From Oikopleura dioica (taxonomy: Eukaryota > Animalia > Chordata): DNA of 64,000 bases. The stretch spans positions 5,828,001 through 5,892,000 of the forward strand of contig OU015568.1 of NCBI GenBank assembly GCA_907165135.1. The letters run 5' to 3'. The notes below the pieces were generated by a model. That model was not told the DNA's origin and did no database searches. It was given only the letters and a program-made list of their open reading frames with translations. Positions 17,061-44,724 of this stretch are shown one piece after another. The first letter of the stretch is position 1, and every line of letters starts with the position of its first letter. The translations under genes and the position numbers were made by a program.

Positions 17061-17234
17061 GTTAAGGGTGGGTTTTATACGAGAGTTTCTCATGGCCTAC
17101 TGGGGCTCAAAGCAACCGACAGGGTCGCCGAATCAAACAAGTGGAAGTGATGAGGTTTTCAACAGGTAAATGAATGATGATGTCGAGAGCTTTTTCGATA
17201 GAATCTCCTTTTTTTCAGCCCTGTTTCTTCCCGA

Positions 17235-20964: not shown

Positions 20965-21339
20965 GAAAAAATTTGAACATAAAATCTTTTACCGAAATTT
21001 TCAGCCCGAAACTTTCGGGCCGAAAGTATCTTCAATAAACTTTAATCTTGAACTGATTTAATTTTTAAATCAACGAGGACTTTTTTGAAAAAAGAAAGAA
21101 ATTGCTTTTTCGAAAAATGGTCTAGACGCGGATTTCTTCTAAATCAAGGTTCAGCTCAGTTTAAAAACTCGGTCAGTCGGCGATGATTTAAGTCTCCTCC
21201 GTGTTATTGTCACTCACAAAAACTCATTCTTTTTAAACAAAAATGACAGGAGCAAAATTTTTGCATAACTATCGCAAATTCGCAAATCCGGTAAAAAGCG
21301 CTTGTTTTATCCGCTCTCTTGTCTGGTCTGAGAAGGTAA

Positions 21340-21515
21340 CTAGACGACTCCTCCAAGAGCTAGAATCTTTGGAATAAGCTCTCTTCAATGACCATAGTCG
21401 TTCGCGAAATTTCCGTATCCATGATTTAGATAAATTGCAAATTTTGGCTCGCCAACCGGTTCCCATTTCTCTAAATTATATCCAAACTCACTTTAAAATC
21501 TCCCGTTTTGCATTT
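21340..21515 (-). pseudogene. Degenerate copy of hydrolase exon 1
   Basis: Matches ~15920-16105 (GACCATAGTCGTTCGCGAAATTTCCGTATCCATGA shared). Confidence 0.75.
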
Positions 21516-21909
21516 TTTAATGAATATTTAGTCTTTGTTCGGCTTATTTTTGAGGAGCAAACAGGATGTACTTGAATCATTATGGGGATGACTTATTAGC
21601 TTTAGACTCGGGATCGAAAAGGACTTATTTACTTATAATAAAGGGAAGGCGTCTGGAACCGACTGAAAATGCCAACAAAATTTTAAAATGTTTGCAAGCA
21701 GCAAATTCTAACACTATGACTGACACCATAATACGCAAACAAGTCATTGTGCTTTACGTTTCGCAATTTCAAGAGATTTTTTAACCAAGAATGGAGAGGT
21801 CTTTGCCAAAGTTATCAAAAAAATAGGAAAAATAATTTTATTATGTATTATGAATTAGTAATCATTATTTATGACAAGTTAAATTTTTATGTTTGATAAT
21901 TCGATGAAA

Positions 21910-24144
21910 GAAAAACGGAAGGTTTGGGTCAATCGAAGATGCTCCCTTTGAAAACGACCGCGGAGTCACAAAAGCTGTCGACAAGGAAAGTGGTGCGACT
22001 GTTATGATCAAGTGGATCACGGCCAAAGGGCCAAAGTATATCAAAGCAGCGGAAGAAGAGGCGCAAAAACTGCGAGATTTGAGCGCACAGAGCCGGTTTT
22101 TCGTCAAATTCATCGACTTTTTGCCAAAAATGCGGCCGGACTGGTGGGAATGGAGTATTTTGTCCTTTATCGTCATGGAGTTCTGCCCCGGTGGCTCTTT
22201 GAAGGACTGGATTGATGCAAGAAAACCCCAAGGTCGGAGAACTACTGTCAAGGAAGCGACTGTAATCGGAACGCAAATTGCTTTGGCGCTGAGTTTTTGC
22301 CATTCTCGAAAAATTGCTCACTTGGATGTCAAACCCGCAAATGTGATGATGATGAGCGATGGCTTCACTGTAAGATTGAACTTGAGAACTATATCTCAAA
22401 AACATTAAGATCAAACTGGGCGATTTCGGCATTTCAACACTTCTCGATTCAGTTCGAGACACTATTACAACCAAAGGCTTGCAAGGAATCGTCGAGCATA
22501 CTCTTCTCTACATCACTCCAGGAAATTTTTAAATGACTGAAGTTCGCTGAAAAAGGAAGTAGGGGTTATCCTTCGAGCTTGCCTCGAATTCACTACATGC
22601 CTCCTGGCGCAGCTATAATTCGAGCCGCTCGAATGTTACAGATGTCATTTGAGCGCCTATAAATTATACTTTCTCTTACCCTTTTCAGAAAACTTTTGAC
22701 GCAGAAGACTTTTATTATATACCTTTAGCTCGAATTTTAGGTAGTCGAAATACGCCTATTGCATTCGAGCACCTCGAATTATAAGTTTTCAAGAGACATT
22801 TATAACATTCGAACGACTCGAATTATAGCTGCTCCAGGAGGCATGTAGTGAATTTGAGGCAAGCTCGAAGGATAGCCCCTCACTACGCTGAGAAATCGCG
22901 GGTAAACACAAATGCTCCGAATTCAGCAGCCTTGGACTTAACACTAAAAATAAGAGCAGAAAATGAAAATTTTGACAGAATTTTTGAGAAACCGGATCGA
23001 CTCGGAATCGCCAAGAATCGACGTTTGGGGATTTGGACTTGTTCTTCAAGAGGTGATTACCCTTGAGCACGCCTTTGGTCGTCAAGAAGGACAGCCAGCT
23101 GATGATATCAGAATTGGTAAAAATCAACACTTTTTATCCTTATTTATCAAAAATTCTCTACAGTCGAAAACATGAAGTTTGGAAAACGAACTAATTTTCA
23201 AATCTTCGGAGAAACGGAGGAATTCGGGGAATTCGAAACTCTGATTCAAAAATGTCTTCGTCCAACTAGAGAATCGCGCCCAAATAACATGATGATTGTG
23301 AAGAACGAAGAGATCTTCTCCGATTTTGTCCAACGGATCGAGCGAGGGGAGCTTCCAAGTGATATCATGGCAACTTCAGGGGAAATGATAGAAAAATTAC
23401 GAGATGAAAATCGGCAAAAAGATCAACAAATTCAAGTTCTCGAGAATATTATCAAAAATCAGATTCGCGATTTTGAAAGCCTCAAAAAAGAGTTTGAAGA
23501 GGAAAAAGCAGCTGGACATGAGGATCTTATAAACCACGTTGATGAGTTCACTCAGGAATTGGAAATAATAACGACTGAAAGGTAAATCAGTTAATTATAA
23601 AAAAAGTCTGCAATAACAGCTCTCTTATAGAAACGATCTTGTTGCCGAAAACAAATGCATCAAGGAGCGAAACGAAACTCTCGACACGAAGAACAAGCAA
23701 ATGGAACTCGATCTCGCTGCAAAAGACGAAGAAATAAAGCAAATTCGAGCCGAATTCCTTGAAGGAGCAGTCAAGCGAGCCGATCACATCAAGCTCAAGA
23801 ATGACTACAATGCTCTTATTGACGAACTGGAGAAGCAAGAAGCTCGAGTCAAAAAAGAAATGGTTTCAAAGGCTGCTTTTGCCGCGATGGAGCGAAGCAA
23901 GGAAAACTACAAAAACAAGCTCATCGAGAAAAACGAAGAAATTGAGCTATATCACGAAGAAATGGAAGCTCATTTTTCTAAGATAATGAATTTACAAGAA
24001 AATCAGCAAAAAACCTATCAAGAATGGCTTCTAACAATGAAGAAGAAGAAGGAGCAAAAATGGATACTAGCGCTTGAAAACTCAAAAATGCCGAAGAAAC
24101 CAGAAGCTGCTTCTCTTGCTGCTACGGTCAAGCCTCAAAAATGA
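21910..24144 (+). CDS. Ser/Thr protein kinase - coiled-coil gene, copy 2; its C-terminus is replaced by an MPKKPE... fragment and it has no RING
   Basis: Same kinase motifs as copy 1. Coiled-coil exons are shared with 36552-38350, and the stop is at 24144. The start exon is not resolved. Confidence 0.7.
22560..22880. mobile_element. Palindromic MITE in the GA-AG intron of kinase copy 2
   Basis: ~90-bp inverted arms (TCCTTCGAGCTTGCCTC...CTACATGCCTCCTGG vs CCAGGAGGCATGTAG...GAGGCAAGCTCGAAGGA). It is absent from copy 1. Confidence 0.8.
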
Positions 24145-24243
24145 AATTTCTGGTGACGAAGAAGGCAAGCAAACGGGCCTTTTTCGATTCAGAAATTGAA
24201 CCTGAAATCTTTGATTTAAGTGTTATAAATAAATTTTAACCTT

Positions 24244-24517
24244 CGTGGAAAGCTACATCAACACCCCACGGCGATGCTGCTGTTGCAATCTTGGTTCAAT
24301 CTGTTATCTACATCTTTGTGCAAATCTGTGCAGTGCGAGCCACAGCGGGTCATTCCTAGAGAACCCGTTGTGGTAAGTACAACTTCTATCTTCTCAGTAA
24401 CTTTGACTAAACTAGTGCTTTCCGTATTTATTGGAAAAGTACAGAAACAACAACATTTCGACTCGTTACTTGTACGCATTCTTCGATCAGCAGGCGCAGC
24501 AGGCTCGCACTTCCACG
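24244..24517 (+). repeat. 5' LTR
   Basis: CGTGGAAAG...CTTCCACG; it matches 35319-35592 with no difference found by eye. Confidence 0.95.
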
Positions 24518-24532
24518 TGGTAACTGCAAGTG
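24518..24532 (+). promoter_or_regulatory. Putative primer-binding site (tRNA not identified)
   Basis: TGGTAACTGCAAGTG directly after the 5' LTR; TGG is complementary to tRNA CCA. Confidence 0.6.
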
Positions 24533-24582
24533 AAAGTTTTATCACGACTGATTCTACTTGTTCGAACTCCCCCCGAAGAGTC

Positions 24583-25984
24583 ATGAGCGGTACATCGCTA
24601 ACTGAAATCGTCAACGCTGGAAAAGGGACGCTCTCAGCAGCAGACCTCAAGAGCAAGGCGAAAACAAGAAAAGTGATCGAAGCTCTCGCACAATCACAAA
24701 CGGACCAGTACGTCTCATGCGACATGATACTTCGCGCGAAATGGCTGTGGACAGGTCATGGCCAGGACTTAACGCCGAAAGACAACAAGCTGGGTGTACC
24801 GACGACGTTTGTGGATCTGGTGAAGATGGTGCAGAGTAAAGCACTTGAAAGAGCCGACATAACTGCCTCAAACGAAGAGTACTTGAGGTACATCGCTGGA
24901 ACTGAAGTGACCATCGAAAAAAGAAGGTGGCTACAGTATAGAGATCCAGCAGCGACGGAGTCTGACATCAACAAGGACTCGGAGAGAGAAAGCTCAGCAT
25001 TCTTCGAGAAATTGAAGAGTGACAAGTACTCTGATGCAGAACTTCTAGTACAAGCGACACGGAAAGCACGCACGATTATGAAAACAGCACTAGGATCGGA
25101 TGACCCAACGATCATATCCATAAAGAAGTCAGTACTTCGAGGGGGTCATTACCGAGACTTAAACGAATTCATTTCGATCTGCCAGGATCAGGATGGTTGC
25201 CAGGACATAGCGAACGAAAACGTAGCGATTACGGATTTTGCGCGGGAACTCAAACGGAACTTGTCGCACAATCTGGGTCAAGCGAATCTGAAGCAGCTGG
25301 CACTATTCTATTCGGGCGCACTACAAGACAATTTGGCTGCTGGCGATGACAAGAAGGTGAAAACACAGAATGTCGACGGCAGAAAGCTGAGCAGAAGTCT
25401 TGCGGAAGAAGAATCGCCCATCATCTCAAGAACAGCAGTAGCGTTAGCTTTGACTCACTGCGATGACCGAACTCTAACGAGGATAGAGCGGGAATATAGA
25501 TCTCAATCGGGAAAAACAACATCACCGGAGGATCTCCCGCTCGATCTAACGAAGTTCCTTTCGATCGCAACGCTGGAGGCGGCGAAGACGAGCCAAAAGC
25601 GTTGGAGTAAGGAAGGTTGAAAGCGAACCGAAGAGCGAGGTCACGGAGGAAGTAAAGTTCGTAAAGTCGAAGCAGGGCAAGAAGGGGAAAAAGGATGATA
25701 AGAAGAAAGGGGAAGGTCAAAACGTCCAGAAAAAGGAGGACGAGAGAAGCCCAAACGAACCGGAGAGACCACCCTGCCCCTACTGTGCTCTAAGATTCAA
25801 CACGGTGGTATTTCACTCGAAGGGATGGAGATGCCGCAGCAAGTACATCACAAACGAACGAAAACACTACGATGGCAAAGCAAGACAGGAGAAAAGGGAT
25901 GAAAGGAAGGGCGAATCACTGAAGCAAGTCACAGAATCATCGAGTGTCTACAGCGCGTTGAAGCTGAGTGAAGATGATCTATGA
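24583..25984 (+). CDS. gag: Gag, with a +1 frameshift near 25595; ends at TGA 25982-25984
   Basis: ATG at 24583, and frame 1 is open to 25620. Frame 2 carries a lysine-rich tail and a CX2CX9HX5C knuckle (25775-25834) and is in frame with pol. Confidence 0.8.
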
Positions 25985-28900
25985 CTAGAACGAGTGCACG
26001 CCGTTGGAGCGAATTCAAAGAGTCTACTGCCAACTCTGAAGATGGAAGCTCGCGGAAAAGCACAAAGCCTCGTTAAAATAAGCGTTCAGCTGGACACAGG
26101 AGCCGAAGTCACGTGTATTGGAGAACGGATTCTGGAGAAACTGGACCACAAAGTAAAATGGCAGAGAAGATTCGTGAAAGGCGTAAGCGGCAAAAGAATC
26201 GGAATCATGAACGAAAGAAACGAGAACAAAGTTTGTGACATAGAGTTGATGGTGAATGGAAATCCATGGATGATCAGCGACGCCATAGTCTTGGAAAGCA
26301 TTGACGGACTACTGATGGGCGTAACAGACATGGATGGGAACACATCAATCGACATGGTCAATAGAAGAATCGTTTTCGAAAAGTTCAAGGTCGCCGCAAG
26401 CTATGACCGACAAAACGTACTGAAAATCAGTACAAAGCACGAACTGTCAGACGGAAACTTCGAACCAGATGCCAGAAAGACCTACAAGGAAAAACTGGAG
26501 AAGATGAGAAAAGAAGCTCGAGAATCGTCGACGGTGGATGACATCGTACTTGGTGAAGTAGTCAAAGAAAACCCGAAGCTGGAGGAGCGACTCATGACCA
26601 AGATAAGAGACAAGAAGTACAAGAAGGTGTTCTCAAAAGTCACAGGATGCCTTCCAAAAGAATTCGAGATATCAGCGCCGATGATGAGAGTGGAACTATC
26701 GAATCAAGTCACCAGGCAAAAGAACGAGCAAATGTCCGATGAAAAGAAGGAGATTGTAGCGAAACATCTGGACGAACTTGCTAGAGACTACATCGTGGTA
26801 TTTCCACAAGATCATGGAATCTCGGTCAAAAACATCATACCAATCATGGTTGTCGAAAAGAGAGACGACCAAGGTGAAGCCATCCCACTGGCTCAATCGG
26901 CGAGGATCGTGGCTCAGGCACACAGAAGCGTGAACCTGTGGACAAAAGCCCCTCCAAGAGTAACGGATGAACTGAAGGACGTTCTAGCAAAAGCAGCGAA
27001 GGCGTCGAAGAACAAGTTCATGATGAAGACGGACATCTCTCAAGCGTTCTTCCAACTACCGACGGAGAAGGCGCTATGGCCGTATTTTGGAGTGTATCAC
27101 CCCTATAAAGGGGTGATGTGCTATACTCGAGCGAGCCAGGGATGGATCGCCAGCATGGGAATGGTGAGAGAAGCGTTCCTGAGAATCTTCGAGCCGCTGA
27201 AGAAGTACATGGTGCGGTATGCCGACGATGTGTTCATCAGCGCAAACAACGAGGACGAGTTTGTTCTCGTTGTCACAAGATTTTTGGACATCTGCGCGCA
27301 CTTCAATTTGAGCCTGAAAGGGTCCAAAATGGCGATTGGTGTATCGGAGATGAACTTCCTTGGCGCAAAAGTCAAAGGAGGAAAGATCGTTGCTTCACCT
27401 CATCAAGCTCAGAAGATAAGAGATTACGACATCTCGACGATAAAAACGGTGTCGGATCTCAGAAGCTTTCTAGGAATACTGGTACCGCTGAGTAAGTTCA
27501 AATGCAGAGCCACCGACTTTCTCGTCCCACTAAGAAAATGCCTGGACAATGATGGAAAGGCGAAGATCGTTTGGACGGAAGAAGCGAAAGAAGCGATAAA
27601 AATGGCGAAGAAAGCGATGGACGAACTCACGGAGCTAACACCATTTGACGAAGATAAACAGCAATACATCGTAGTCGACAGCTCAGCAAAAGGAACAGGA
27701 GCAATCCTGTTTCAAAAGGAGCTAGTGGACGGCAAAGAGATCAACAGAGTAGTGGAATTTTACTCGAGAAAACGACCAGACAGCGAAAGAAAGTACACTG
27801 CATCAAGTTGCATGCTAGAAACAGCAGGGTTGGTTGGAGCACTGTGCTACTGGCGACGATATCTAATCGAGAGCAAATTCCCGACGATTGTATTCACTGA
27901 CTCGATGCCACTAACGATGATAGCAAAGAGATGGACGGAGAACTTGACGCCGAGCGACATTGTATCAATAAACAATTTGTTCAAGGCTATCCTAGGCTTA
28001 AGAATCGTAGTTAGACATCTGCCGGGAAAAAGCATAGAGATCAGTGGCGTGGATTTCATCAGTCGCAGCTCGGGTCACATGGAAGAATGTGATGCGAAAC
28101 GCTGCAAGATTTGTGAGATCAGTCAAACCCCGAGAAGTGATCAATCTCCATTCATCTCGGAAGAAAAGTTGGAGGAAATCAACAAGGAAGTCAGAAAGTT
28201 GAAAGACTGGCATTCATCGAAAAGAATCATGATCGTCGACGACCAATTCACCGAGGAAATGAGCAACGAAATATGGTCGGCGAATTGTGATGAAGTAGTT
28301 GAAGTTGATTACAACAAAGAAGCATTCCAGACAGTGGCGATGGCACTCAGGGAAAGAAAAGCTAGAGACTTACTGGATTTCTTGAAGGACGAGAAGACGC
28401 TGAGGAAGATGCAGCTCTCGGACAAGCTACTGAAAGAAGTAATCAAGTACGTGGAAAAAGATCTGAACCCACCGCCACGAAAACAACGACTAAACACGCT
28501 ATGCAAGAAGGCATTCTTGGAGAAGGGCTACCTAAAAATCAAGAGATAGATAGGGACAGCGGAGTATGAGCTAGTACTAGTTCCAGAACATTGCGCTCTG
28601 AAAGTGATAAAGATAGTGCATGACACAGTCGGGTGCAATAGTCCAACTCAACTTACGAACAATGTCAGAAGATACTTCGATCTCCAAAATGTCAGAAATC
28701 ACGTGCTGAAGTTTGTAAATCAATGCTACAAATGTACGCTGATGAGACGACCAGACAACTTCGAAGCAAAACCAATGAAGGAAGTCCCAGTGCCAAGTAA
28801 ACTTGGGGAAGTCATATTCGTGGATGAGATACACAGAACGGATAGATTCAAGAGACCGCTGAAGATCTATTTCGCCACGGAAGCCATCAGCCGATTTGCA

Positions 28901-30430
28901 GTAGCACTACCGAGCAGAAATCACACGAATACAGAAGGATTTGTAGAATTCATGTTTCTGGCGAAGCAACTATTGTCTCCACTACAATCAACGAGGAGCA
29001 AAGTCATCGTAAGATGCGACCGCCACTCAGTCCATAAATCAGAAGAAACAAAGAAAAGTCTTGAGGAACTGGGAATGGAAGTATCGATTTACGAATCTAC
29101 AACTTTCTCGAAGAACATAATACCGGAACAAGATGCGAGGATCGGCCTTTTCTCGAAGTTACTAAACGCGGTGCAGAATGACCCATCGAAATCGGTTTTA
29201 GAAGCTACAAGCTGGGCTTGCGCTCAGTACAATCACACGTTATCATCAGGGAACTTGGCACCGGTCGAAATAATGACTGGAAGAAAGGCTGTAACGCAAG
29301 AACCGGTGGACATAAACCTCGACAGCTTGATCGACGATATCAAGTCGAATAGAAAGACGAAAAGAGATGCGGCGGACAAGTCAAATGCATCAAAGAAGAA
29401 GTCGAAAAGGCTGAATCTAGTGGAAAAAGGAAAAGCGACGTCGGAGGAGGAAACGGAGATAGACGTTGGCCAGATCATCAGAACAGCGCAGAAATGGGAC
29501 AAAAACGATCTCGACAGACTATACAGAGTTACAAGCATCGAATGGTCCAGAAGAGAGGTCAAAGCGGTCAAAGTGAACGCGAGAAACAAGACGAAACCGA
29601 AAACGATAAGTTTCAGCGCGATTGATGCAGTGATAAGTCAGGAAGTGAGGACAATCCAAGAAAACCTCATAGACAATAGCATCGTGAGAAGCTGGATTGT
29701 CACGAAGAATGGTTTGTCAGTCTGGGAAGAAGCTCCGCAAGATCACATCGGACCAAGGGCCCCGAGAATGCCGACATTTGATGATTCGGGCATCTCACAA
29801 GGACCACCAGGGTCAGTAATGCCACCAACTCCGTTACCAGAAATTGTTGAAGAACCGGGCGAATCCACACCAAAATTCGACTCACACATCAGCTCAGCGA
29901 TCGAATGGAGAAACCCGAGGAAAATCAATCCGACGGAAGAAAGATTCAACTGGATACCATCGCCGGAAGAAGTCCTAGAAACTACGGATGAAGGAGACAA
30001 CTCAATGTCGACTGTCAAGAGTTTCGAAACGTTGATGAATTGCTCGAAGAACTCATCGGAACTGAATGAGGAAGACATGAAAGAACTAGAAAACTCATTC
30101 GAATGGATAAATGAGGATGAAATGAAAGAAAAACAACCCAGGAGATCAACTAGAAAAACCTGGAGACCTGCAAGTTATGAAGAAAAAGCTCGAATGAAGA
30201 AAACTAATGAGAAGATATCATCTTTTCGTCTTTATTCGTCATCATTTCAAGTGAAGAGAGATCAAACAGTCTCTTTAAAGTTTCCCGAGTCGTGTCCAGC
30301 GTCAGCATCGTTGGAGGTTTCTGCATCGAACGGGGTGAAACACCTGAATGAAGATTTAGAAGAAGCGAGCTCACATCTGTACCTACATGTCTATCATCGC
30401 GCGGTAGCTCAACTCAGAAGGCATCGGTAG
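25985..30430 (+). CDS. pol: Pol (protease, RT, RNase H, integrase), interrupted by an in-frame TAG at 28547-28549
   Basis: LDTGAE (26093), YADD (27218-27229), RNase H motifs VDSS / ETAGL / FTDS, and integrase D...D(35)E with exactly 35 residues. The natural end may be TAA-TGA at 30205-30210. Confidence 0.9.
30231..30236 (-). promoter_or_regulatory. AATAAA polyadenylation signal of the antisense gene
   Basis: TTTATT on the + strand, 25 nt past the antisense stop codon. Confidence 0.6.
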
Positions 30431-33400
30431 AAGTCGAGTTGCTAGCATCTTTGCCGCCAGAGCTGGGTGGAGATCCTTGCCCACCTTCGAAAGCATCTTC
30501 TCCGTCGGATACATCCGGCAAAGTACTTTCATAGTCGCGGAGAAGTTGTTCTTCAGATACTCCACGAGGATTGCCGTCAAACGTAACTTCGTGCTGGCGG
30601 TACAGGTGAAGAGTTTGCCGACTGATGGCCGCACCACGGCTTCGTAGAAAGACGAGATCTCCCCGATGGTGCGCTGAGCTAAGAGTTCAAAGGTTATCAT
30701 CTACTTGTGGCGCATACCTGGCGCGCCGGACTCCCATGTTCGCTCAGTCTCAGCAGGGTCGAATGGCACGAAAGTGCTCGGCCGCACTTCGGGTCGATCG
30801 CCTCGCTCGCAGTCAGCTTGCAGAAACCGGAACGTAGCCACGATGTCGGCGTCATCACCGCCATAATATTGCACATGGCGTCGTCGTTCGTAGTTCTCGC
30901 GCCAGCTTGGCGGGAGAAGTTCTTAAAACAAACGATTACTCGCGGAACTCACTAGAAATCATTACCTGGATGAAAGCGACACTTGGTGGTGCGCCGTTTT
31001 CCTTCATCGGAGGAATACGGCTCTTCACAATCTCCAGTACCGAGCTCACCGCGCTCGTACAAGGTCTTCACGTAGCAATACAGCCCACCAGTGAACGCTA
31101 GAAATACACGAATCAATCACGATTCTACAATAAGCAAGTTTACCTTCGAAGGGGAGCACTGCCATCAACTTCGGAAGAATCATCAGCAAGTGCGACGAGC
31201 TATCACCGGCTTGATGCGCGAAATGAACACCCGGCAGTCCAATATGACGCACGGGCTTGTCAGCGGGTGAAGGTCCAGCGGAAGACGCACGCCACGTAAA
31301 AGTATCTTGATATGGCGGGGCCGAAACGTCATCGACAGGGCGAAGATCGGCATAAACCGGAGGATGTCGACGTCCTTGTCGATCGTAGAAGCGATCCTTA
31401 ACAAAGAAGCCGTTAAGTATCGCAGAGAAGAAACATTAGCTTACCTGGTTGAGCTGCGCTGGTGCAGTCGCTCGATACTTGCCATGACGTCCATCAGGCG
31501 GGAAATCAACCTGACTGAACTTGGACATCTCTACAGAAGCACACCCAGCGAAAAAGGATTCAATCATCCAAAATGTACGCTTGCGTCCACCAGCGCCGCA
31601 AGACAGAGTCAAACCAGGAACACCGCGAACAGAGAAGTCCATCACGAAGCAGGACTCGGGCGGTGTAGACGTACTCAGGGCGTTGGGTCGAAGCCCATAC
31701 TCAGCAGTCATCACAGAAGCGATGACAAGTACAGACTCTAGCATGCCCAAGCCGTGAACATCGAGATCTGGAATGTTCACGCCCCAGCTCTGCATACCTG
31801 AATGATCATGTTAAAGAAAGAATCAACGCGAAGAAGTACTTACACAAACCGCTAAGCCTCATCGTTTCATCAACAGGCGGCCGAATCACTTGCTGCATCG
31901 AAGCCCGATAGAGATCCATCGGCGTCAGCAAGAACACTTCTTCGCACGGTCGATCGCCAAGACGAAAAAGGCGTCGACAACACATTCGAAGATGAGCGTC
32001 CGGATAGACAGTGTCAATCCGAGACAAAGCGAACATGACATCAGGAGCTCTAAACATGCAGAGTTAGGGAAGTCACTTGATATTGACAAGAAGAACTCAA
32101 GTCCCAAGATTACATACCGGTGCTGGCGATGTTCATCGAATTCGCGCATCGGCAAATCGTACGATCCGAAACCGACTCCGCGGAATGCGCCGTATCCGAA
32201 GTGACAAGCGTCGTTCTGTGAGTCGAGGATGAAGGCATCGTGTCGGAAAAGATCCGAAGAAGGGTCGAAGCCAAGCGGTAGATCGAGCAGAGGCTCGAGG
32301 AACTTTTCAGCAAATACAGAGGGACCCAGCGAATCCTCAAGAGCACGCTAAAGAAGTTCATTAGTTTTAGTACGACGGCAGTAGACTTACAAGATAGGAG
32401 CAGCCAGGGGATCTATCACCATGAAACATTGGATGCCCCAGAAGCGTCTGACTCAAGCCGAAATCTTGACGGTCGACCAAAGAACGCCCATAATAGCCGC
32501 CGTCGAGCAGAAGATTCCAAACACCTACACTCCAGTCGTCATCCAGCAAAGTCGGCCGACCACGCAGATAATCTTGAAAGAAAAGTTTAGTAAAACGAAG
32601 AAATCAACGAAGAACTACCTGGCAGAGTCACAACGACCCGACTTAGTCGATTGAAGGGCCGTCGAGGGCCGCTGGAAGAGATCTTCCCGCCCGACTGCAG
32701 GTAGAAGACATCATGAGCACGATCAGCATCAGTCCGGGGTCCGACGTAAGGTGCAGCAGCGTACCGACGAAGGACAGGCTCCAACAAGATGGGCGCTTCT
32801 TGAGAAATCAGCGGCAGACCATCACACGGGTCCATGTCGACGTGTAGATAGCTGTCGCACTCATCTTCATCGTGACAGCGATGGCGTTTGGCAGCCTCTT
32901 CTCGGACCGAAGAAACAGGAAATCGTGGAAATCGGCGCCGACGACGATTTGGAGAAGGTGGACGAGCGGGAATAGCTGGCACGGGCACGAAAGCAGAGTC
33001 GGAAGTGGTCCGGCGTGTCGAAGTACCAGCAAGAAACTGCTGCGAACGAAAAGCAGGCAGCAAGAAATCGCGGAAAGCTTCACAACCAGAGCCGCGTCGT
33101 CCCTTATCCGATTGCGAAGTACTCTTCGTGACGGGATAATGAACGAGATCTACAACAGAATTTTAGAAGACAGAAAAACAAAGAAGAGATTTGGACTTAC
33201 TCGCACTGCCAAGCGGCCGACTGACCAATTTCAGTTGAGCCATACATCGCGAGAGAGATGTCTCGGTCGTTTCGGTAGATACATCTCGAGTTGCAGCTTT
33301 GAGATCAGCAATTGGGCCAATTCGTCGAGAGTATTTCAACTGGTACGCGGGAGAGCAAGCAGCGATCTTTTGGGAATCCTTCAGCGTTCGTTCGTAGTCA

Positions 33401-33921
33401 CGAGATTCCTCCCAGTTTGAAAACTCCCGCGGAACGGCATAACCAAGATACATCCGGGACGCGTTGTAGTACTGGATAGGCTGATCAACGAGCGGCCGAG
33501 AAGAGATCGATGCATCGTCAGCAACTCCGCGTCGATGCACACTGGTTTTCTTGCCGGTGTCGATCAACAAAGAAGGAGGATCGTAGAAATCGACTCCTGA
33601 CTCAGGAGCACCGAGGGGATGATCCATTTCGGGATCACGAGGACGAGCGGCGACTTCATCAACTTCATCTTTATCTAGAAAGATGGGAGCTTCATCCAGC
33701 GGGCGAGGCTGAGGATTTGGAACTGAACGAACGTCGTTCCGGATGTGTCTGTCCCAGTCATCGCCAGAACCACCGCCAGAAAGGTCGCCACCGCTGCTTT
33801 TCTCGAGCTGATCGCGTAAAGTAGGAGTTCCTCGCCGTGGGTGTTTCTCAATGAACTCGCCGGACTCCAACGACTCCTGAGTTGAAGGATCTTCTTCATC
33901 AGAGCCAAGATCCCAAGCCAT
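30262..33921 (-). CDS. Antisense 11-exon gene inside the retrotransposon, 1061 aa, no recognisable domain
   Basis: Exons are 33921-33201, 33149-32619, 32572-32391, 32347-32118, 32049-31844, 31797-31445, 31396-31144, 31097-30966, 30921-30718, 30678-30387 and 30343-30262. Ten GT-AG introns of 51, 46, 43, 68, 46, 48, 46, 44, 39 and 43 nt separate them. The total of 3186 nt has no internal stop. Confidence 0.88.
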
Positions 33922-34324
33922 TTCTCTACAACAACTAGATTCCGTCTGAAAAGAAAAGAAAGGATGAATCTAGTTGACAAACAAGCAAAAGTAGTTCAAG
34001 CAGAAGTTTTCTCTAGAAGAATGATCAAAATCCAGCAACTCTCGTAGAAAAGGATCAAATGGAGATGATCTGAAGACTGGTAAACAAGTAAACAAGGTCG
34101 CGAGAGTTTTTCAAATGAAGCGCGGCGTAGGCGGCGCGAAATGGGAGGACCTACGTGTGAACCCGGAGGACCCGCGAAAAGAAGAAAACAACTGCTGAAC
34201 AACAACAACACGAAAACCGGCAAAAGCAGATGGCCGGAAAAATGCCACCGAAACCATGACGCAGAAAGCTTCACTTTGCAAAGAGTCAACTAGTGATCGC
34301 ACGCGTCTTGAGAGAATTTGAAGC

Positions 34325-35257
34325 ATGAATCGGCTGGCAGCAGCGTTGGAAACCTCGAAGTTATTGCCGAAGAGCTGGAACTATCCGAGCCAAGTGGACG
34401 ACTCGCGACTCTCCGAACGCTCGAAGAAGATATTGAAGAAGTTCGAAAAGTTGGACGAAACAGGCAAGCGATTGCCTGCGAGTCTGATGTCGGAGCGGGT
34501 CCACGCCTTCCACTTTGAATACGAGAAGACGGTGGCGGAGCTGATGGAAGTCCTCTCGGACAAGGGCATCGAGAAGAATGGAGGCAACCAACTACTTGCG
34601 TTCGCCATATTTAATCCGTATAGTGGCGGATATAGAATCCTGATGAAGCAGACGAGCTTTCGGGCTGAACTCCTGCTGCAATCTCCAGGCTATTGGCCGA
34701 GAGACTCCAACTATCCTGGGGACCATCAATACTCCCGTGACCTGAACCGATCGGTCCGAATGCAGTCGGCGATTGAAGGTGGTACTCTTGAGGTGACAGT
34801 GAGCTCTGACGCGGCTAGCCGATCGTCGGAGGAGGCGTTGGGACTGCTGTCATCATCGGAGGAGTTGCCAACGATGGCGGAGCTGTCGATTGTGAAAGGA
34901 TCCGGGGATATTGAAGCGGAGGAACCGAGCACGTCAGGGTTGAAGACATTCTCTCGAAACGGATCGACGAGGAAATCCGACAAGCGAAAGCGGGAGCAAC
35001 TGGATTCAACCTTGACAACGTCAGCTAAGAAGCAGAAGAAGAGAGAGCCACTCAAAGTTACTACATTCTTCGAGAAGAATTCGTCGTCGGACGGTGGCAG
35101 TGACTTCAATGATGAAACTTTCGATCATTTGGTCGTAGTTAGCTCTGAAGAAGAGAAAGCGCCAAAGAAGAAGGTGCTTCCACGACCGAAGGTGCTGTCT
35201 AAGATCGTCCGACCGTACAATAAGAAGAGAGCCGAGAAGAAGAAGTCAAAGAAGTAG
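34325..35257 (+). CDS. 310-aa accessory ORF of the retrotransposon with an acidic/Ser-rich middle and NLS-like basic clusters; not env-like
   Basis: Intact ATG-TAG ORF just upstream of the PPT, with KRKR, KKQKKR, PKKK and KKKSKK clusters. No signal peptide or TM segment is visible. Confidence 0.75.
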   Translation: MNRLAAALETSKLLPKSWNYPSQVDDSRLSERSKKILKKFEKLDETGKRLPASLMSERVHAFHFEYEKTVAELMEVLSDKGIEKNGGNQLLAFAIFNPYSGGYRILMKQTSFRAELLLQSPGYWPRDSNYPGDHQYSRDLNRSVRMQSAIEGGTLEVTVSSDAASRSSEEALGLLSSSEELPTMAELSIVKGSGDIEAEEPSTSGLKTFSRNGSTRKSDKRKREQLDSTLTTSAKKQKKREPLKVTTFFEKNSSSDGGSDFNDETFDHLVVVSSEEEKAPKKKVLPRPKVLSKIVRPYNKKRAEKKKSKK

Positions 35258-35298
35258 ATCCCAATCAAGAACTGCATCGAAGAGCCTACTCTTCTCCT

Positions 35299-35316
35299 GA
35301 AAGGGGGGGGAGGGGG
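35299..35316 (+). promoter_or_regulatory. Polypurine tract
   Basis: GAAAGGGGGGGGAGGGGG, 2 nt before the 3' LTR. Confidence 0.9.
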
Positions 35317-35318
35317 CA

Positions 35319-35592
35319 CGTGGAAAGCTACATCAACACCCCACGGCGATGCTGCTGTTGCAATCTTGGTTCAATCTGTTATCTACATCTTTGTGCAAAT
35401 CTGTGCAGTGCGAGCCACAGCGGGTCATTCCTAGAGAACCCGTTGTGGTAAGTACAACTTCTATCTTCTCAGTAACTTTGACTAAACTAGTGCTTTCCGT
35501 ATTTATTGGAAAAGTACAGAAACAACAACATTTCGACTCGTTACTTGTACGCATTCTTCGATCAGCAGGCGCAGCAGGCTCGCACTTCCACG
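35319..35592 (+). repeat. 3' LTR
   Basis: Direct repeat of 24244-24517. Confidence 0.95.
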
Positions 35593-36551
35593 CTTTATAC
35601 TTTTTCTATATTTTTCCTTGCTTGAATTATTAAAGATACAGTATCTATTTGGGCAAAAAAAATTTAAAGGATTTTTCTAAATCAAGGTTCAGCTCAGTTT
35701 AAAAACTCAATCAGTAGGCGATGAGTTAAGTCTCCTCCGCGTTAATAATTGCCACTTACAAAAGCTCAGTCTCTTTAAACAAAAAATGACAGGGGCAAAA
35801 TTTTTGCTTAACAATCGCTAATTCGCGAATCCGGTAAAAAGCGCTTGTTTTATCCGCTCTCTTGTCTGCTGTGAGAACGGAACGAAAATGTGGACGTCTG
35901 CTTTCAAATTTGAATAAGAGAGAGGCGGCCCATGCAAAATGCAATCTATTCCAAATTGTAGCGTGAGCGATCAACTTCCGATTCGCGTCATCAAATTGGC
36001 AGTGAAGGAATTTTAGAAAGAAGCTTTTTTCCTAAAAATTTTTCATCATTTTTCAAAAATTTTATTTGATAAGGCTTTCGAAACTTATTTAACCTTGGAA
36101 AATGATATTATCTTATCTCAAAAATTACATAAAAAGCCTCATAATTGGTTCTTGAATGCTTGCCGAAAGAATTTTGAAAAATCAGCAAGGCGAAAAAAGA
36201 AGAACAAATAGAAAATGCAGCAATTCTGAATTCGCGTGAGAGGGCAAATATCAAATATCAAATACGCCTTTGCTCAGTCATTTTCCCTTCCAAACACTTT
36301 TCTCGGCCCGCCTCGATTCTCGTTTACTCACGAATAGCCGAGCAATTTTTAAAACTGTGTTTTCGTATTAAAGAGATTCTTATGTCATCTTCGTCTTACT
36401 GGGGCAAGGCAGCTCCGAAGCAGCAGTCTCGTTCACCCAGCCAAACAAGTGGAAGTGATGACCCAGTCTTTGTGAGGTATTTCGAATTGTTTCGAAAGCT
36501 CTATCAAATATTATTTATATTTGAAGTCCTGAAAGCTCTGTTGCTTCTGGA

Positions 36552-38350
36552 ATGCCAAAGAAGCCAGAAACTACTCTTTTTGGTGACTCCAACACGCCTC
36601 AAAGATCAACTCAGCAGGAGCATCAAGCAACTTCTGCCTCTGATGAGTCATCAACTTCCTCTGGAATGCCGCAAAAGCCAGAAGCAGCGAGGTTAGGCGG
36701 TACAGTAAAGCCTAATTCAGAGCCTAACGCCGCCAAAAAACAGCAATTCAAAAGACTCGAGCAAATTTCTGGCGACGAAGAAGGCGAGCAAACCGGCAAT
36801 TCTCGATTTAAAAAGCAAGTCGTCGAGGAGGAAGAACAACCAGCCGCTCTCCCTCGAGGTCAAAAACCGCCAAGAGCGAATCAACGAAAATATCTTCCTC
36901 CGAGAAATACCGATGGAGAGGAACTTCGTCAACTTAGAGTGAGAAACCAAGAGCTCGAAAATGATTTGAGAATGAAAGAACAACAGCTGAAAAACCAACA
37001 AGAAGAATTTGAAGAGGAAAAAGCTGCGGAACACGAGGATCTGTTGAACCAAGTTGATGACTTGACCGAACAATTGGACAAAATAACGATGGAAAGGTAA
37101 ATTTTTCGTTCAAACGAATCAGAAATTGAGAGTCTCCCTTGATCTAGGGTGGGCAAATGCTTGGGGGGTTGGGCTCCTGTGAGGCTTTGCTCTTCTGTGA
37201 TTGGCGGTTAAAAAATATACTTAGCTCTTATTGTCTGAGGGGCCCCCGACCCAACTGCGGCAGTGGTAATCCCCAAAGTTTTCGAGGATTTTGCCCACTC
37301 TAGGTCTTGATTAAATGAAAAAAATTTGAAATTATTTTACAGAAACGATCTTGTTGCCGAAAACAACGACATCAAGGAGCGCAACGAAACTCTCGACGCC
37401 GAGTACAAGCAAATGGAACTCGATCTCGCTGCAAAAGACGAAGAAATAAAGCGAATCCGAGCCCAAGTCCGTGAAGGACCAGTTAAGCGAGCCGATCACA
37501 TCAAGCTCAAGAATAACTACAATGCTTTAATCGACGAACTGGAGAAGCAAGAAGCTCGAATCAGAAGCGAAATGGTCTCAAAGGCGGATTTTGCGGCGAT
37601 GGAGCAAAGCAAGGAAAACTACAAAAACAAGCTCATCGAGAAAAACGAAGAAGTGGACCAGTATCACAAAGAAATGAAAGCTCATGTTTCTGGAATAATG
37701 ACTTCAAAGGAAAATCAACAAAAGACCTATCAAGAATGCCTCAAAACGATGGAACAAAACGAGCAGAAGTGGAGACGAGCGCTGGAAAATTCTGAAAATC
37801 GACATCGCTATTTTATCAGCAGAAGCAATGAGGCAGAATATGAGCTGAATCGGGTGAAAACTGAGCTTCACTGGAAAAACCAAGATCTTCAGGTCTCTAC
37901 TTATTTTCAAATTCATCATTCAATCAAAACTTTTAGTCGCTAAATGGTCGAATTCACGAGCAAGATCGCGAAATTTCCCGACTTTCCAGAGCCGAAGAAG
38001 ACCTCCATCGAAACATCAAAGAACTGATGACTAAGCATGAAGACATTGTTCATCAAAAAATGCAAGCAGAACAACATCTTCAAGATCATGCTCAAAGAAA
38101 CGAAGCTGATCAGAAACGACTTCAAGAACTCAAAAGACAGGTTTGGAATTCTGACCATAAGCGGGATCATTGATTTGATTTTAGCAAGATGAAATGGCGA
38201 GGCAATTGCAAGTTGGACAGGATGAACGAAATAGGCTCATGACGAGTCGCAAAAATTTTGAAAAAAGAGTCAAAGACAATGAAAATCAATTCAAAAACAA
38301 GCTCAAAGAGCAAGAAGAAAAACTCGAGACATTTGAAGAACTTGAAGAAG
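36552..38350 (+). CDS. Coiled-coil gene with a low-complexity MPKKP... N-terminus instead of a kinase; probably once spliced to the RING exon at ~44739
   Basis: ORFs 36552-37100 and 37326-37943 are paralogous to 23500-24080. The last exon ends FEELEE|gt at 38350, like the pre-RING exon of copy 1. Confidence 0.7.
37144..37303. mobile_element. Small hAT-like MITE in an intron
   Basis: CTAGGGTGGGCAAA ... TTTGCCCACTCTAG with a degenerate 8-bp flank (CCCTTGAT / GTCTTGAT). Confidence 0.65.
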
Positions 38351-39889
38351 GTACAGTTTGAAGCACTTTTAAGGCCAACCCTTTTAAGGCCACTTTTTCG
38401 AAAAATTCCGAAAATCTGTCATCCTAAAAAAATCCACTTTAAGGCCACTTTCCCTTCAATTTCAGTTCAAAATCCGAAAGTTACAGTGTCACTTGAAAAA
38501 GCTTTCTATCTTCGACTGCGTGATGCCTTGTGTTTTTATTTTTATTTTTCTTTTTGGTATTTTTCGATGTTTTTTCTCGACTTTTTCAATTAACGATGAT
38601 TTCTTACGGTCTTGTTTGAATTTTCACTTAGATTTTGATTCCAATTGTTTCAATCTATAATCATTATATAGCCGTGTAAAAATACGCAGAGGAATGTCTT
38701 AACCCTAGCCGGTCAAGGTACTCCAAATATGGAGCAGGTTTTTACTCATTTCCAATATTTAACGTATAATTTCCAAGAAACTCATTCTGGAGCGGTTTTT
38801 TCTATTGCATCTTGATAGACAGGGTTTAATCTATTTCCCCAAGACCATATAATTTGAGATTTATCATTTTTATAGTCTTATTTGCAGGTAAATCCTGGCG
38901 CCAAATATGGAGTACCTTGACCGGTACCCGAGAAAAACCATTAACTAAATCATCTAGGGTGGGCGAAGCCATTTCGAAGCAGGGGGTTTTTTCCGCCAAT
39001 CAGATGCAAGTATTGGTAACGGGGTTCTCCGCTTTGTGTTGGTGCTAAAAACTCGCAGTGGCCAAGTACAGGCAGGTGTCAAGCTGTGCAAATAGGATGC
39101 AACGGGCCCACCGACACGCGCAGCCTACTGCGATGTCCTGCAGAGACTGGTCCTAGCACCAATTTCGAGCAACGCTCGGTGTGATATAGCTTCAAAATCA
39201 GCAAGCTAAGCCGAGGATAAGCTCAAAAGTGAAGTTTTAAAAGAGTAAAAAATTGGAATTTCATAAAACCTTGTAGAGTAATTTTTTGTAGATTTTACTT
39301 CTGAGATCGAAAATATATTTATCTGACCATAGGTAGGCTTACCGCGGTGTTTTTCCATTTTCAAGGTTCTTTTGAAAAATCTCCCCATACTTTCTGAACA
39401 TATGCATCAAGACAAGCCTTGAAAAACTGCACTTGCAGAATTTTCGATATGAGTCATCTTACCCCCTTTTTTGGGGGATTTTTAGCAAGAAAAAAAGCAC
39501 TTGTTTGATTAGAAGCGGCTTTTGAGTGCGTGCTAGATCGATTTTGATAATTTGATGCCTACCATGTGAAAGATAAGCGCAAGATGCATCGATACATATG
39601 AAATTTATTATTGCGGAGTACTTCCTTCATATGATTCTAGAGCTCCAAAGTTGACACAAGCAGCCAGATACGAAAATCCAATATTATCAACTTCTGATAT
39701 AAGCATGCTATGATGATGTTTTATAGCTCAAATTGAAGCTTGTAAATTACTGAACAAAATAGAGTGGTATTTTTTGACCAGCCGGTTGTGCTTCCAGTTC
39801 GTCGCGGTTCATACCCGGAAATAGGTCAAAATGTAGAAATATGTATATCAAATGAATAAATTTTCAACAGCGAATCTTTTGAACATATT

Positions 39890-41230
39890 CAGAAGTTCAA
39901 CCGCCCGGTTATTATTGCGGTTCATGGTGGTTCATGGTGGTTCAAGCGCAGAAATGAACAAAATAGCAGCAATATGTATATCAAATTGAAACATAAATTA
40001 AGAACATTCATAAAATCATTTAATAAGCCCGAACCAACCGGTTGTTCTCCCGGTAAATGGCGGTTCCAAACGGTTCAAGCCTGTTCAAGCTAAAAACATG
40101 CTCAAAGAGGTTCAATATGGTTATCAAATGTATTCATTTACAATAGCAAAGCTTTCTAGAATATTATGAAATTCAACCGCCCGGTTATTCTTGCGGTTCA
40201 TGGTGGTTAATCGTGGTTCAAGCCCAGACATGAACAAAAAAGCATCAATATGCATATCAAATTGAAACATAAATTAAGAACATTCATAAAATCATTTAAT
40301 AAGCCCGAACCAACCGGTTGTTCTCCCGGTAAATGGCGGTTCCAAACGGTTCAAGCCGGTTCAAGCTAAAAACATGCTCAAAGAGGTTCAATATGGTTAT
40401 CAAATGTATTCATTTACAATAGCAAAGCTTTCTAGCATATTATGAAATTCAACCGCCCGGTTATTCTTGCGGTTCATGGTGGTTAATCGTGGTTCAAGCC
40501 CAGACATGAACAAAAAAGCATCAATATGCATATCAAATTGAAACATAAATTAAGAACATTCATAAAATCATTTAATAAGCCCGAACCAACCGGTTGTTCT
40601 CCCGGTAAATGGCGGTTCCAAACGGTTCAAGCCGGTTCAAGCTAAAAACATGCTCAAAGAGGTTCAATATGGTTATCAAATGTATTCATTTACAATAGCA
40701 AAGCTTTCTAGCATATTATGAAATTCAACCGCCCGGTTATTCTTGCGGTTCATGGTGGTTAATCATGGTTCAAGCGCAGAAATGAACAAAATAGCAGCAA
40801 TATGTATATCAAATTGAAACATAAATGAAGAACATTCATAAAATTATTTAATAAGCCCGAACCAACCGGTTGTTCTCCCGGTAAATGGCGGTTCCAAACG
40901 GTTCAAGCCGGTTCAAGCTAAAAACATGCTCAAAGAGGTTCAATATGGTTATCAAATGTATTCATTTACAATAGCAAAGCTTTCTAGCATATTATGAAAT
41001 TCAACCGCCCGGTTATTCTCGCGGTTCATGGTGGTTAATCGTGGTTCAAGCCCAGACATGAACAAAATAGCATCAATATGCATATCAAATTGAATCTTGT
41101 ATTAAGTACATTCGTCGAATCATTGAATAAGCCCAAACCAACCGGTAACTCTCGTGAGAAAAGGCGGTTTCTGACGGTTCAAGCCGGTTAAAGCCGAATA
41201 TATGCTCAAAGTGGTTCAATATGTACGTCA
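39890..41230 (+). repeat. 276-bp tandem satellite, about 5 copies
   Basis: CCGCCCGGTT recurs at 39901, 40177, 40453, 40729 and 41005. Confidence 0.95.
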
Positions 41231-41324
41231 AATGAATGTTTATTAAAAAGCACGTCTTTTGAAACTTTAACGAGATCCGGACGCGTGGTAAAACACTTAA
41301 TATGCGAAAACCAGACCCATTTAT

Positions 41325-43432: not shown

Positions 43433-44724
43433 TGAAATGATTTTATGAATGTTCTTAATTTATGTTTCAATTTGATATACATATTGCTGCTATTTTGTTC
43501 ATTTCTGCGCTTGAACCACCATGAACCACCATGAACCGCAATAATAACCGGGCGGTTGAACTTCTGAATATGTTCAAACGATTCGCTGTTGAAAATTAAT
43601 TCATTTGATATACATATTTCTACATTTTGACCTATTTCCGGGTATGAACCGCGACGAACCGGAAGCACAACCGGCTGGTCAAAAATACCACTCCATTTTG
43701 TTCAGTAATTTATAAGCTTCAATTTGAGCTATAAAACATCATCATAGCATGCTTATATCAGAAGTTGATAATATTGGATTTTCGTATCTGGCTGCTTGCG
43801 TCAACTTTGGAGCTCTAGAATTATATGAAGGAAGTACTCCGCAATAATAAATTTCATATGTATCGATGCATCTTGCGCTTATCTTTCACATGGTAGGCAT
43901 CAAATTATCAAAATCGATCTAGCACGCACTCAAAAGCCGCTTCTAATCAAACAAGTGCTTTTTCTTGCTAAAAATCCCCCAAAAAGGGGGTAAGATGACT
44001 CATATCGAAAATTCTGCAAGTGCAGTTTTTCAAGGCTTGTCTTGGTGCATATGTTCTGAAAGTATGGGGAGATTTTTCAAAAGAGCCTGAAAAATAGAAA
44101 ACACCGCGGTAAGCCTAGCTATGGACCATAGCTCACCTAAGCCTTCCCTTGACGAGAAAGCTCGGGTACCAATTGGTATTGTCTGCTCAAAATAAAGTAC
44201 AGAAAAATCTGCCAAGGCAAAAAGAGCAGATTATAGATAGCGATTCATATATAAAAAATATTTTCATAACTTTATTATAACCAAGGGAATCTTGATTTTT
44301 ACGAAGATGATTTCGAGGTTCATAATCGAAATCTCCGTAAAAATAACCATATAAGGCGAGTTTTCATAAAATTTCAATCTTCATTCTTTTTATCTTCACT
44401 TTTAACCGGCTGAGCTTGATCCGATTTTGCAGCTAAGTTCCCCTTGTTTGTGTTAACTTTGGCTCAATCCATCTCACACCGAGCCTTGCTCAGAGTTGGT
44501 GCTAGGAGCAGTCTCTGCGGGACCTCCCAGTGGGTAGCACATGTCGGTGAACCTCTTGCATCCTATTTGCACAGCTTGACATCATGCCCGTACCTGCCCA
44601 CTGTGAGTTTTTAGCACCAACACAAAGCGGAGTGAGCCTTGGTAACATGAACCAATCAGAGACGAGAAAACCCCTAAGATACTTCCGAATCTTTTGCCCA
44701 CCCTAGTTTATCATTCAGGACCTT

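Follow-up and report, generated by a model that had tools for sequence, protein, structure and literature searches.

A gene called brtn, carried by Boty elements, is reportedly intron-rich, with 14 exons. Previous studies have described it as an antisense gene of Boty-like Ty3/gypsy elements in Botrytis cinerea (Zhao et al. 2011, PMID 21802103, as cited in the available parts of PMC7264820, PMC4227169 and PMC8365987). In plants, gene23 of maize Grande is presented as antisense, nuclear and driven by its own promoter, with a proposed regulatory role (PMC7264820, available part). HTLV-1 HBZ is likewise an antisense accessory protein of an element that replicates through RNA (PMC11963269, available part). 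The Tor elements of Oikopleura dioica include two groups, Tor3b and Tor4b, in which env is transcribed from an internal promoter (PMC4402516, available part). That text uses the word antisense seven times, always for probes. The literature covered holds no report of an antisense gene in Tor elements, although the supplement of PMC4402516 and Volff et al. 2004 lay outside its scope and an earlier mention is possible.

Here, we analyze a 64-kb stretch of O. dioica DNA (the window), in which an 11.35-kb Ty3/gypsy (Tor-like) retrotransposon encloses an antisense gene. Like brtn, this is an extra gene lying antisense between pol and the 3′ LTR, and like genes of the brtn/gene23 type it is found in multiple copies under selection. 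Grande gene23, RIRE2 of rice and Retand (TRP28) occupy the same slot in the same orientation and are conserved across copies (PMC7264820, available part). Several differences are nonetheless evident. Brtn sits in a fungal chromovirus, whereas the present gene, of ~1060 codons, sits in a chordate Tor-like element which also carries a second, head-to-head sense ORF that sets it apart from Boty as described. The plant genes appear as ORFs in the available part of PMC11963269, where the word intron is absent, whereas the Oikopleura gene has ten introns; its protein, unlike TRP28, has no Transposase_28 or other Pfam match. HBZ is a small product of transcription from the 3′ LTR, whereas the gene here has ten coding introns and likely an internal promoter. 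Tor1-Tor4b share with our element the host, the Ty3/gypsy domain order, near-identical LTRs and, in Tor3b/4b, an internal promoter for the third gene, but the third gene of Tor is a sense env (PMC4402516, available part) and the one here is antisense. The sequence-only reading that first drew attention to the locus noted extra antisense ORFs in some plant Ty3/gypsy lineages but knew of none with ten introns. The design is less unprecedented than this suggests, since fungal brtn, as far as the cited excerpts go, occupies the same place.

The element and its antisense gene

The features of the element are collected in Table 1. As expected of Ty3/gypsy, gag is followed by PR-RT-RNaseH-IN between direct LTRs, with a PBS and PPT; the LTR ends read CGTGG...CCACG rather than plain TG...CA. 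Its pol is nearest to those of O. dioica LTR elements, in keeping with the Tor family: of eight matches, three are named O. dioica (55-56% identity), three are at 51-55% or are the window's own, and two are at 24-27%. No tRNA genes were found in the window. Across 64 boundary pairs of the single copy examined there is no perfect 4-6-bp target-site duplication, and a 3-nt CTT flanks both ends; in Tor elements such duplications measure 4-5 bp and are marked for some elements only (Henriet et al.). A single plus-strand AATAAA occurs in the element, at 27967, and none in its 3′ region.

Table 1. Features of the retrotransposon, in window coordinates
Feature	Position	Strand	Description
5′ LTR	24244..24517	+	274 nt; 100% identical to 35319-35592
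Primer-binding-site-like sequence	24518..24535	+	TGG start; abuts 5′ LTR
gag	24583..25984	+	345-aa ORF, frame break at ~25.6 kb, then Cys/His knuckle-like segment
pol part 1	25985..28549	+	protease-like segment, RT, RNase H; Pfam RVT_1 (E 1e-15), RT_RNaseH(_2)
pol part 2	28550..30430	+	integrase: Integrase_H2C2 (E 1e-4), rve (E 0.009)
AATAAA poly(A) signal of antisense gene	30231..30236	-	25 nt past stop
Antisense gene	30262..33921	-	11 coding exons; ATG at 33921, stop ends at 30262; 3186 nt, 1061 aa
Antisense exons 1-4	33921-33201, 33149-32619, 32572-32391, 32347-32118	-	
Antisense exons 5-8	32049-31844, 31797-31445, 31396-31144, 31097-30966	-	
Antisense exons 9-11	30921-30718, 30678-30387, 30343-30262	-	
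Pyrimidine-rich splice acceptor	33946..33962	-	24 nt before ATG
Non-coding spacer	33947..34324	.	between head-to-head genes
Sense ORF	34325..35257	+	310 aa, intronless; acidic/Ser-rich, then Lys-rich C-terminus
Polypurine tract	35299..35316	+	from sequence
3′ LTR	35319..35592	+	LTR pair identical

The window was compared with short-read contigs from four DNA runs of one study, two of which may be its source. Contigs of X1 and X2 differ from it by a small indel at the gag break, which may therefore be an assembly error. The knuckle-like segment of gag terminates with TGA then CTAG, in frame with pol. We take this TGA-CTAG to be a likely stop read-through motif. Pol part 1 ends at an in-frame stop (28547-28549) where homologues are open; short-read contigs across this region differ from the window by 0-1 letters. 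With its pol interrupted, this insertion is probably non-autonomous. The Integrase_H2C2 and rve matches fall below the Pfam curated cut-off but align with homologous pols (tblastn). Likeness to those pols stops near 30.15 kb, X1 and X2 show an indel difference near 30.18 kb, and the run-on of pol part 2 into the last exons of the antisense gene is probably an assembly artefact.

The antisense gene has ten GT-AG introns of 51, 46, 43, 68, 46, 48, 46, 44, 39 and 43 nt in phases 1,1,0,2,1,0,1,1,1,2. GC content is 30-42% in the introns versus 54% in the exons, and retention of any single intron (10/10) truncates the protein to 252-1035 aa. Intron 10 is the least certain: its retention costs just 26 aa, and two homologous loci (L002 and L003, below) have it in another phase. 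As a chance control, we searched for open paths limited to introns whose splice score exceeded a threshold, at two thresholds with 60 dinucleotide shuffles each (120 in all). At each threshold the real minus strand gave a path of 1074 codons. The plus strand gave 190 codons, and the shuffles gave at most 274 and 231; the thresholds were picked after the real scores were seen, but the homologue evidence is independent of them. The region contains 18 strong intron candidates on the minus strand and none on the plus strand. The acceptor upstream of the ATG would belong either to a 5′ UTR intron or to a trans-splice site.

The sequence-only reading had proposed this ten-intron, 1061-aa frame, together with an AATAAA 25 nt after the stop and an acceptor ending at 33946. 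Lengths and phases were reproduced exactly, the signal occupies minus-strand positions 30236-30231, and the acceptor is present. Its scan of the element was right about the antisense reading frame but overlooked the 310-aa sense ORF (34325-35257) and the pol stop.

Could the arrangement be an artefact, either a misassembly or a host gene caught between two separate insertions? The small indels that separate the window from the short-read contigs, and the lack of a perfect duplication, might be read that way. Yet the LTRs are identical, the PBS and PPT are in place, one contig of X2 (26974-33955) joins integrase to the antisense gene, another of X3 (33926-35592) joins the gene to the 3′ LTR, and the same layout is repeated in two other families. 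The bridging contigs and matching layouts refute this explanation, a risk that the sequence-only reading had itself raised. In base composition the antisense gene shows the strand bias of the element: fourfold sites have T at 0.32-0.40 on the antisense coding strand and A at 0.33-0.37 in gag/pol, as against A 0.18/T 0.19 in one host exon.

The 310-aa sense ORF, between the antisense gene and the 3′ LTR and head-to-head with the former, matches no family in Pfam or PHROGs; its homologues were sought only among the loci described here. From the layout, we infer that the spacer (33947-34324) is a bidirectional internal promoter. Compared with the region upstream of the gene in one homologous locus (L004), it gives weak short matches only, with a best E of 0.01.

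Homologues, intron positions and selection

A 1055-aa homologue of the antisense protein is found in a second element family, adjoining pol at two chromosomal loci. By gene number, P0023 (PAR.g8582) neighbors pol P0002 (PAR.g8583), and P0034 (chr2.g6485) neighbors pol P0009 (chr2.g6486); this linkage, 2/2 loci on two chromosomes, rests on gene numbering. In a third family, represented by metagenome contigs L002 and L003, the homologue lies tail-to-tail with a pol whose end is 99-100% identical to P0004. The two stops are 139 and 155 nt apart, respectively, with an AATAAA between them in both contigs. Thus, the homologue lies beside pol at 4/4 loci of known context. No pol is visible on L001 and L004, which are too short or lie within the gene; L004 has an acceptor similar to the window's, 22 nt before the ATG. 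The pols of the families are 51-56% identical. In antisense gene and pol alike, it is the family of the window that stands furthest from the other two, as co-descent of the two genes would predict, albeit with three taxa only.

Pattern scans for the antisense gene confirmed four loci among 323 metagenome matches, and none among 106 viral matches or 108 from prokaryote genomes, with no phage match. Pol alignment scans yielded 595 pattern matches in metagenomes and 163 in viral sequences, none of them confirmed as a locus. A word search with exon 2 confirmed 0/833 candidates among longer proteins, and a search of shorter proteins with P0023 found 1/7999. With exon 6 (116 aa), phmmer returned five matches among 1.84 billion representatives, four of them family members; the fifth, P0022, was set aside as a false match of low complexity.

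Introns 2, 3, 4, 7 and 8 fall at the same alignment column and phase in every covering locus, and the phase is also shared at introns 1 and 6, whose positions agree within 13 and 3 residues. Intron 5 is missing from L001-L004. At introns 9 and 10 the phase in L002/L003 is not that of the window, while L001 matches the window at intron 9. Nearly all homologue introns (23/24) would break the frame if retained. For the L002/L003 pair, dN/dS is 0.15 (748 codons), and intron divergence, at 34/377 sites, is below that of synonymous sites (pS 0.15); for L001/L004, dN/dS is 0.09 (119 codons). Distant pairs, being saturated (dS above 2), were left out. Alignment across families leaves 129 invariant columns. 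By these comparisons the antisense gene is old, conserved and under purifying selection. We put the probability that it is a real functional gene borne by the element at roughly 0.85. The main inference of the sequence-only reading, an antisense accessory gene travelling with the element, thus passed the comparative tests it had called for: homologues adjoin pol in two further families, intron positions are common to families, and dN/dS of 0.09-0.15 shows no neutral decay.

It is very improbable that the antisense RNA, rather than the protein, is what matters, for example through self-limiting double-stranded RNA as with micropia. Antisense non-coding regulators have been described (PMC7264820, available part), and the antisense transcript would end near the end of pol, but the dN/dS values and invariant residues indicate selection on protein. 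A captured host gene that keeps a host-type function and merely hitch-hikes is also improbable, if less so. Its introns, at 39-68 nt against a host peak of 47 nt (PMC4122922, available part), and its 5′ acceptor are host-like, and capture in inverse orientation is a simple route to introns. On the other hand, exon 6 retrieved no non-element animal protein among its five matches, the known contexts all lie beside pol, and Oikopleura has gained most of its introns recently (PMC4122922, available part), so that host-like introns can arise in place.

The protein and its possible role

The antisense protein comprises a variable N-terminus (~1-410), a conserved core (~411-910) and a C-terminal part predicted to be helical. 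Identity to the other families is 30-48% in the core and 19-28% in the first 410 residues. The core has many invariant Asp, His, Arg and Gly residues, in motifs N523-D524-x-x-H527, D634-x-D636-x-H638-G-L-G, a strand followed by S689-x-G-x-G-G-x-K696, and Y888-Y-G-G, which match no curated family. Pfam and PHROGs searches gave nothing significant, including TRP28/Transposase_28. Sequence searches of the PDB gave no match, save one at E 1.3 (the Gly loop of a sugar isomerase), and the ESM Atlas gave no usable match to either the sense ORF or residues 410-1030 of P0023. AlphaFold gave pLDDT 39 for P0023 with a badly misaligned input alignment and 38 for a 189-aa core exon with a clean 9-row alignment; fold searches from these low-confidence models reached Z 4.4 and E 1.3 at best. 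The family is thus unrecognised by the libraries searched. DxH, GDxxD and GNH motifs on a beta-sandwich fold mark a calcineurin-like/PPP metallophosphoesterase, an identity that we considered for the core. It gained no support: the core profile matches lambda phosphatase with a probability of 0.04%, there is no Pfam match, and GNH was not seen.

A divergent envelope or fusion protein, the Tor third ORF turned around, is still less probable than a role for the RNA. The gene does occupy the slot in which Tor3a/3b/4b carry env, and the protein has one moderately hydrophobic helix (Kyte-Doolittle 19-mer 1.6-1.9). But the N-terminus is acidic and polar, unlike a signal peptide, there is no C-terminal transmembrane segment, and none of the 129 invariant columns is Cys, versus seven conserved cysteines and a C-terminal TM in Tor3b/4b Env (PMC4402516, available part). 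Together with its antisense orientation, this separates the gene from Tor env.

LTR elements are copied from sense-strand genomic RNA, in which the spliceosome is blind to antisense introns. Such introns are therefore inherited intact. The gene is probably a helper on which the element depends, spliced by the host and perhaps serving to evade silencing. From the spacer promoter, transcription would run leftwards through the gene and rightwards through the 310-aa ORF without relying on the LTR promoter, so that the helper could be made while the LTR is repressed. The host would transcribe the gene from this internal promoter, splice it and translate it to a soluble, enzyme-like protein that would act in trans for the element; the most probable way is by opposing silencing by the host. 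We favor such a trans-acting, enzyme-like role against silencing, but tentatively, at a little under even odds. No more firmly, we would propose that the core has sites for a metal and for a ligand carrying phosphate, such as a nucleotide or nucleic acid, and that its target is the RNA or chromatin of the element. Basic clusters are few (two in the window's protein, one in P0023), so nuclear import is not evident. Matching reads from four RNA runs, which are not tied to the window's population and so do not bear on expression, numbered 0, 1, 1 and 0.

It is also quite possible, if again short of even odds, that the protein serves the mechanics of replication, such as the export of unspliced genomic RNA, the assembly of particles, entry into the nucleus or the choice of target sites, roles modelled on proposals for retroviral accessory factors. 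Conservation of introns and dN/dS fits this equally well, such roles have been proposed for antisense ORFs (PMC7264820, available part), and the unusual LTR ends of the clade might need a helper. A helper of this kind could, however, be sense-encoded and spliced from the LTR promoter, as is Tor3a env (PMC4402516, available part), and a separate promoter suggests separate timing, which is an argument rather than data. The fullest form of the silencing proposal, in which env was replaced by a bidirectional two-gene cassette whose antisense gene is a new enzyme family disarming host silencing, is rather unlikely as a whole.

Implications for Tor elements

Antisense, intron-bearing accessory genes are a known design in fungi and plants, extended here to a chordate. 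What appears new is an antisense gene with an unrecognised protein family in a Tor-like element, plus the head-to-head sense ORF. About 4.9 of the element's 11.35 kb is given to two genes with no recognised family, in a compact, transposon-poor host genome, which makes it likely that the cassette supplies something the element needs. Annotation easily misses such genes: the collection searched includes the pol piece, the gag piece and the sense ORF of this element, but the window's copy of the antisense gene is absent among its long proteins. Oikopleura embryos permit injection and knock-down, so function is testable. If the fullest form of the proposal is true, the gene has stayed in a reverse-transcribed genome for long enough to have gained, lost and shifted introns, and would offer a natural test bed for intron turnover. 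Finally, Tor elements have been studied through their env-bearing groups; the present finding points to another survival strategy in an env-less group.

The antisense reading frame and its introns

An intact antisense gene with ten introns had been claimed, in a sequence-only reading, within the LTR retrotransposon, and we reproduce its frame with the same intron phases and length (see table). GC content is 30–42% in the introns versus 54% in the exons, and retention of any of the ten breaks the frame. When only well-scoring introns are admitted, the longest open path runs to 1074 codons on the real minus strand and 190 on the opposite strand, with a maximum of 274 in shuffled controls (n = 120). 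Intron 10 is the weakest of the ten calls. The intron sizes fit the host, where intron length peaks at 47 nt according to PMC4122922.

A metagenome scan yielded four confirmed homologous loci (L001–L004) among 323 candidates, and the comparison of intron positions and dN/dS proposed by the earlier reading comes out in its favor when their gene models are set against the window. Introns 2, 3, 4, 7 and 8 have the same column and phase as in the window at each locus that covers them. Introns 1 and 6 keep their phase at a nearby position. In L002 and L003, introns 9 and 10 fall at or close to their window positions but in a different phase, and none of the four loci has intron 5. A stop occurs in 22 of the 24 homologue introns; of the other two, one shifts the frame and one is open. 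In L004, a pyrimidine-rich acceptor precedes the ATG by 22 nt. Values of dN/dS are 0.15 (L002/L003) and 0.09 (L001/L004), more distant pairs being saturated. Fourfold sites of the antisense gene show the same strand bias as the element, and neither strong intron candidates nor an AATAAA occur here on the sense strand, a pattern predicted for a gene that has long been part of a genome copied from RNA of the sense strand.

Features of the element and of the surrounding window
Feature	Position	Strand	Remarks
5′ LTR	24244–24517		274 nt, identical to 3′ LTR
3′ LTR	35319–35592		274 nt
Antisense gene, spliced frame	33921→30262	minus	3186 nt, 1061 aa; ten GT-AG introns, 39–68 nt
Sense ORF	34325–35257	plus	310 aa, intronless, Lys-rich tail; head-to-head with antisense gene
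In-frame stop in pol	28547–28549		
Mucin-like exon	1783–4194	plus	803 codons, Thr/Ser/Glu-rich, signal-peptide-like stretch; start of a folded domain may follow
Short motif with conserved core, eight dispersed copies	724–53030		near 724, 10580, 12828, 13920, 14700, 15373, 17813, 52989; possibly the termini of a small mobile element
Foldback- or MITE-like element	39492–43963		4.5 kb; ~530-nt terminal arms, 99% complementary, enclosing 276-nt and 57-nt tandem arrays
Host sulfatase exon	54927–55934	minus	Pfam PF00884, E 3e-42
Direct duplication	57347–63710		spacing ~5.1 kb, 91–94% identity

The retrotransposon and its relatives

Between the LTRs lie a PBS-like site starting with TGG, gag, pol and a polypurine tract. 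The gag terminator, TGA, shares the frame of pol and stands in a sequence context that is a probable read-through signal. Pfam finds RT and RNase H in pol, followed by weak matches to integrase. Its nearest relatives share 51–56% identity, the next 24–27%, and the species-named ones among the nearest are from Oikopleura dioica, whose LTR elements are the Tor family (PMC4402516). Both LTRs start CGTG and finish CACG, that is, TG...CA flanked by CG on each side, and the element boundaries show no perfect target-site duplication of 4–6 bp, just a 3-nt flanking repeat; the integrase of this clade may process ends unusually. Since pol homologues are open at the in-frame stop and short-read contigs match the window there, this young copy is unlikely to be autonomous. 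Contigs from two short-read runs, both from a single study, join integrase to the antisense gene (X2, 26974–33955) and the start of that gene to the 3′ LTR (X3, 33926–35592).

The setting is repeat-rich, both flanks (16413–24243, 35593–38147) matching other places in the window at 80–96%. Short-read contigs also contain a second gag-protease-RT copy, ~92% identical to 24567–27200, as well as a copy of the putative promoter/5′ UTR region (33920–34156) that has diverged and has unlike flanks; together these are possibly a deleted sister element. A gag cluster mate (P0036) is annotated in the Y-specific region. In three of four DNA runs, 34 nt of exon 10 (30543–30576) recur in a contig whose flanking sequence differs on either side; this may be one more diverged paralogue.

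That the antisense gene travels with the element is upheld in two other families. When exon 6 was used as a phmmer query against 1.84 billion representatives, five matches came back, four of them genuine, including P0023 (1055 aa; 31% identity over residues 407–909, E 8e-51). Consecutive gene numbers link P0023 (PAR.g8582) to the pol homologue P0002 (PAR.g8583), and the cluster mate of P0023, P0034 (chr2.g6485), to the pol homologue P0009 (chr2.g6486); judged from this numbering, the gene adjoins pol on two chromosomes in the second family. In the third, represented by L002 and L003, the homologue and a pol end 99–100% identical to the pol protein P0004 lie tail-to-tail, with AATAAA between the two stops. 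No pol is visible in L001 or L004.

The protein and its possible role

Residues 1–410 are variable, and 411–910 are conserved (30–48%). Asp, His, Arg and Gly are numerous among the invariant residues of the conserved part, which include the motifs NDxxH, DxDxHGLG, YYGG and a glycine loop, SxGxGGxK. The earlier statement that no domain is recognizable holds in Pfam, PHROGs, PDB sequences and ESM Atlas, which returned nothing usable; two AlphaFold models were too low in quality to interpret. A phosphatase reading suggested by sequence motifs found no support. The protein is unlike Tor Env, because it has no signal-peptide-like start, C-terminal membrane anchor or invariant cysteine. By analogy and motif character, countering silencing or sustaining transcription is our tentative choice of role; a part in replication mechanics is nearly as likely, and a host-type or other role less so.

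The 310-aa sense ORF, overlooked previously, is separated from the antisense gene by ~380 nt of non-coding DNA, and this head-to-head arrangement suggests a bidirectional internal promoter. Internal promoters have been demonstrated for Tor3b/4b env (PMC4402516). We put at roughly 85% the reading in which the host would transcribe the antisense gene from the predicted internal promoter, then splice and polyadenylate the transcript; its protein would work in trans, and the introns would survive, since the template of reverse transcription is the opposite strand. The RNA runs examined yielded no usable coverage of the gene.

The nearest likeness is brtn of Boty, which reportedly has many introns. 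The gene would also work like the antisense additional ORFs covered in PMC7264820 and PMC11963269. None of the literature searched describes an antisense gene for Tor elements, but Volff 2004 and the supplement of Henriet, outside that search, may be relevant here. The architecture itself is therefore of a known kind. Novelty lies in its host group and size, in the sense ORF paired with the gene and in the protein family.
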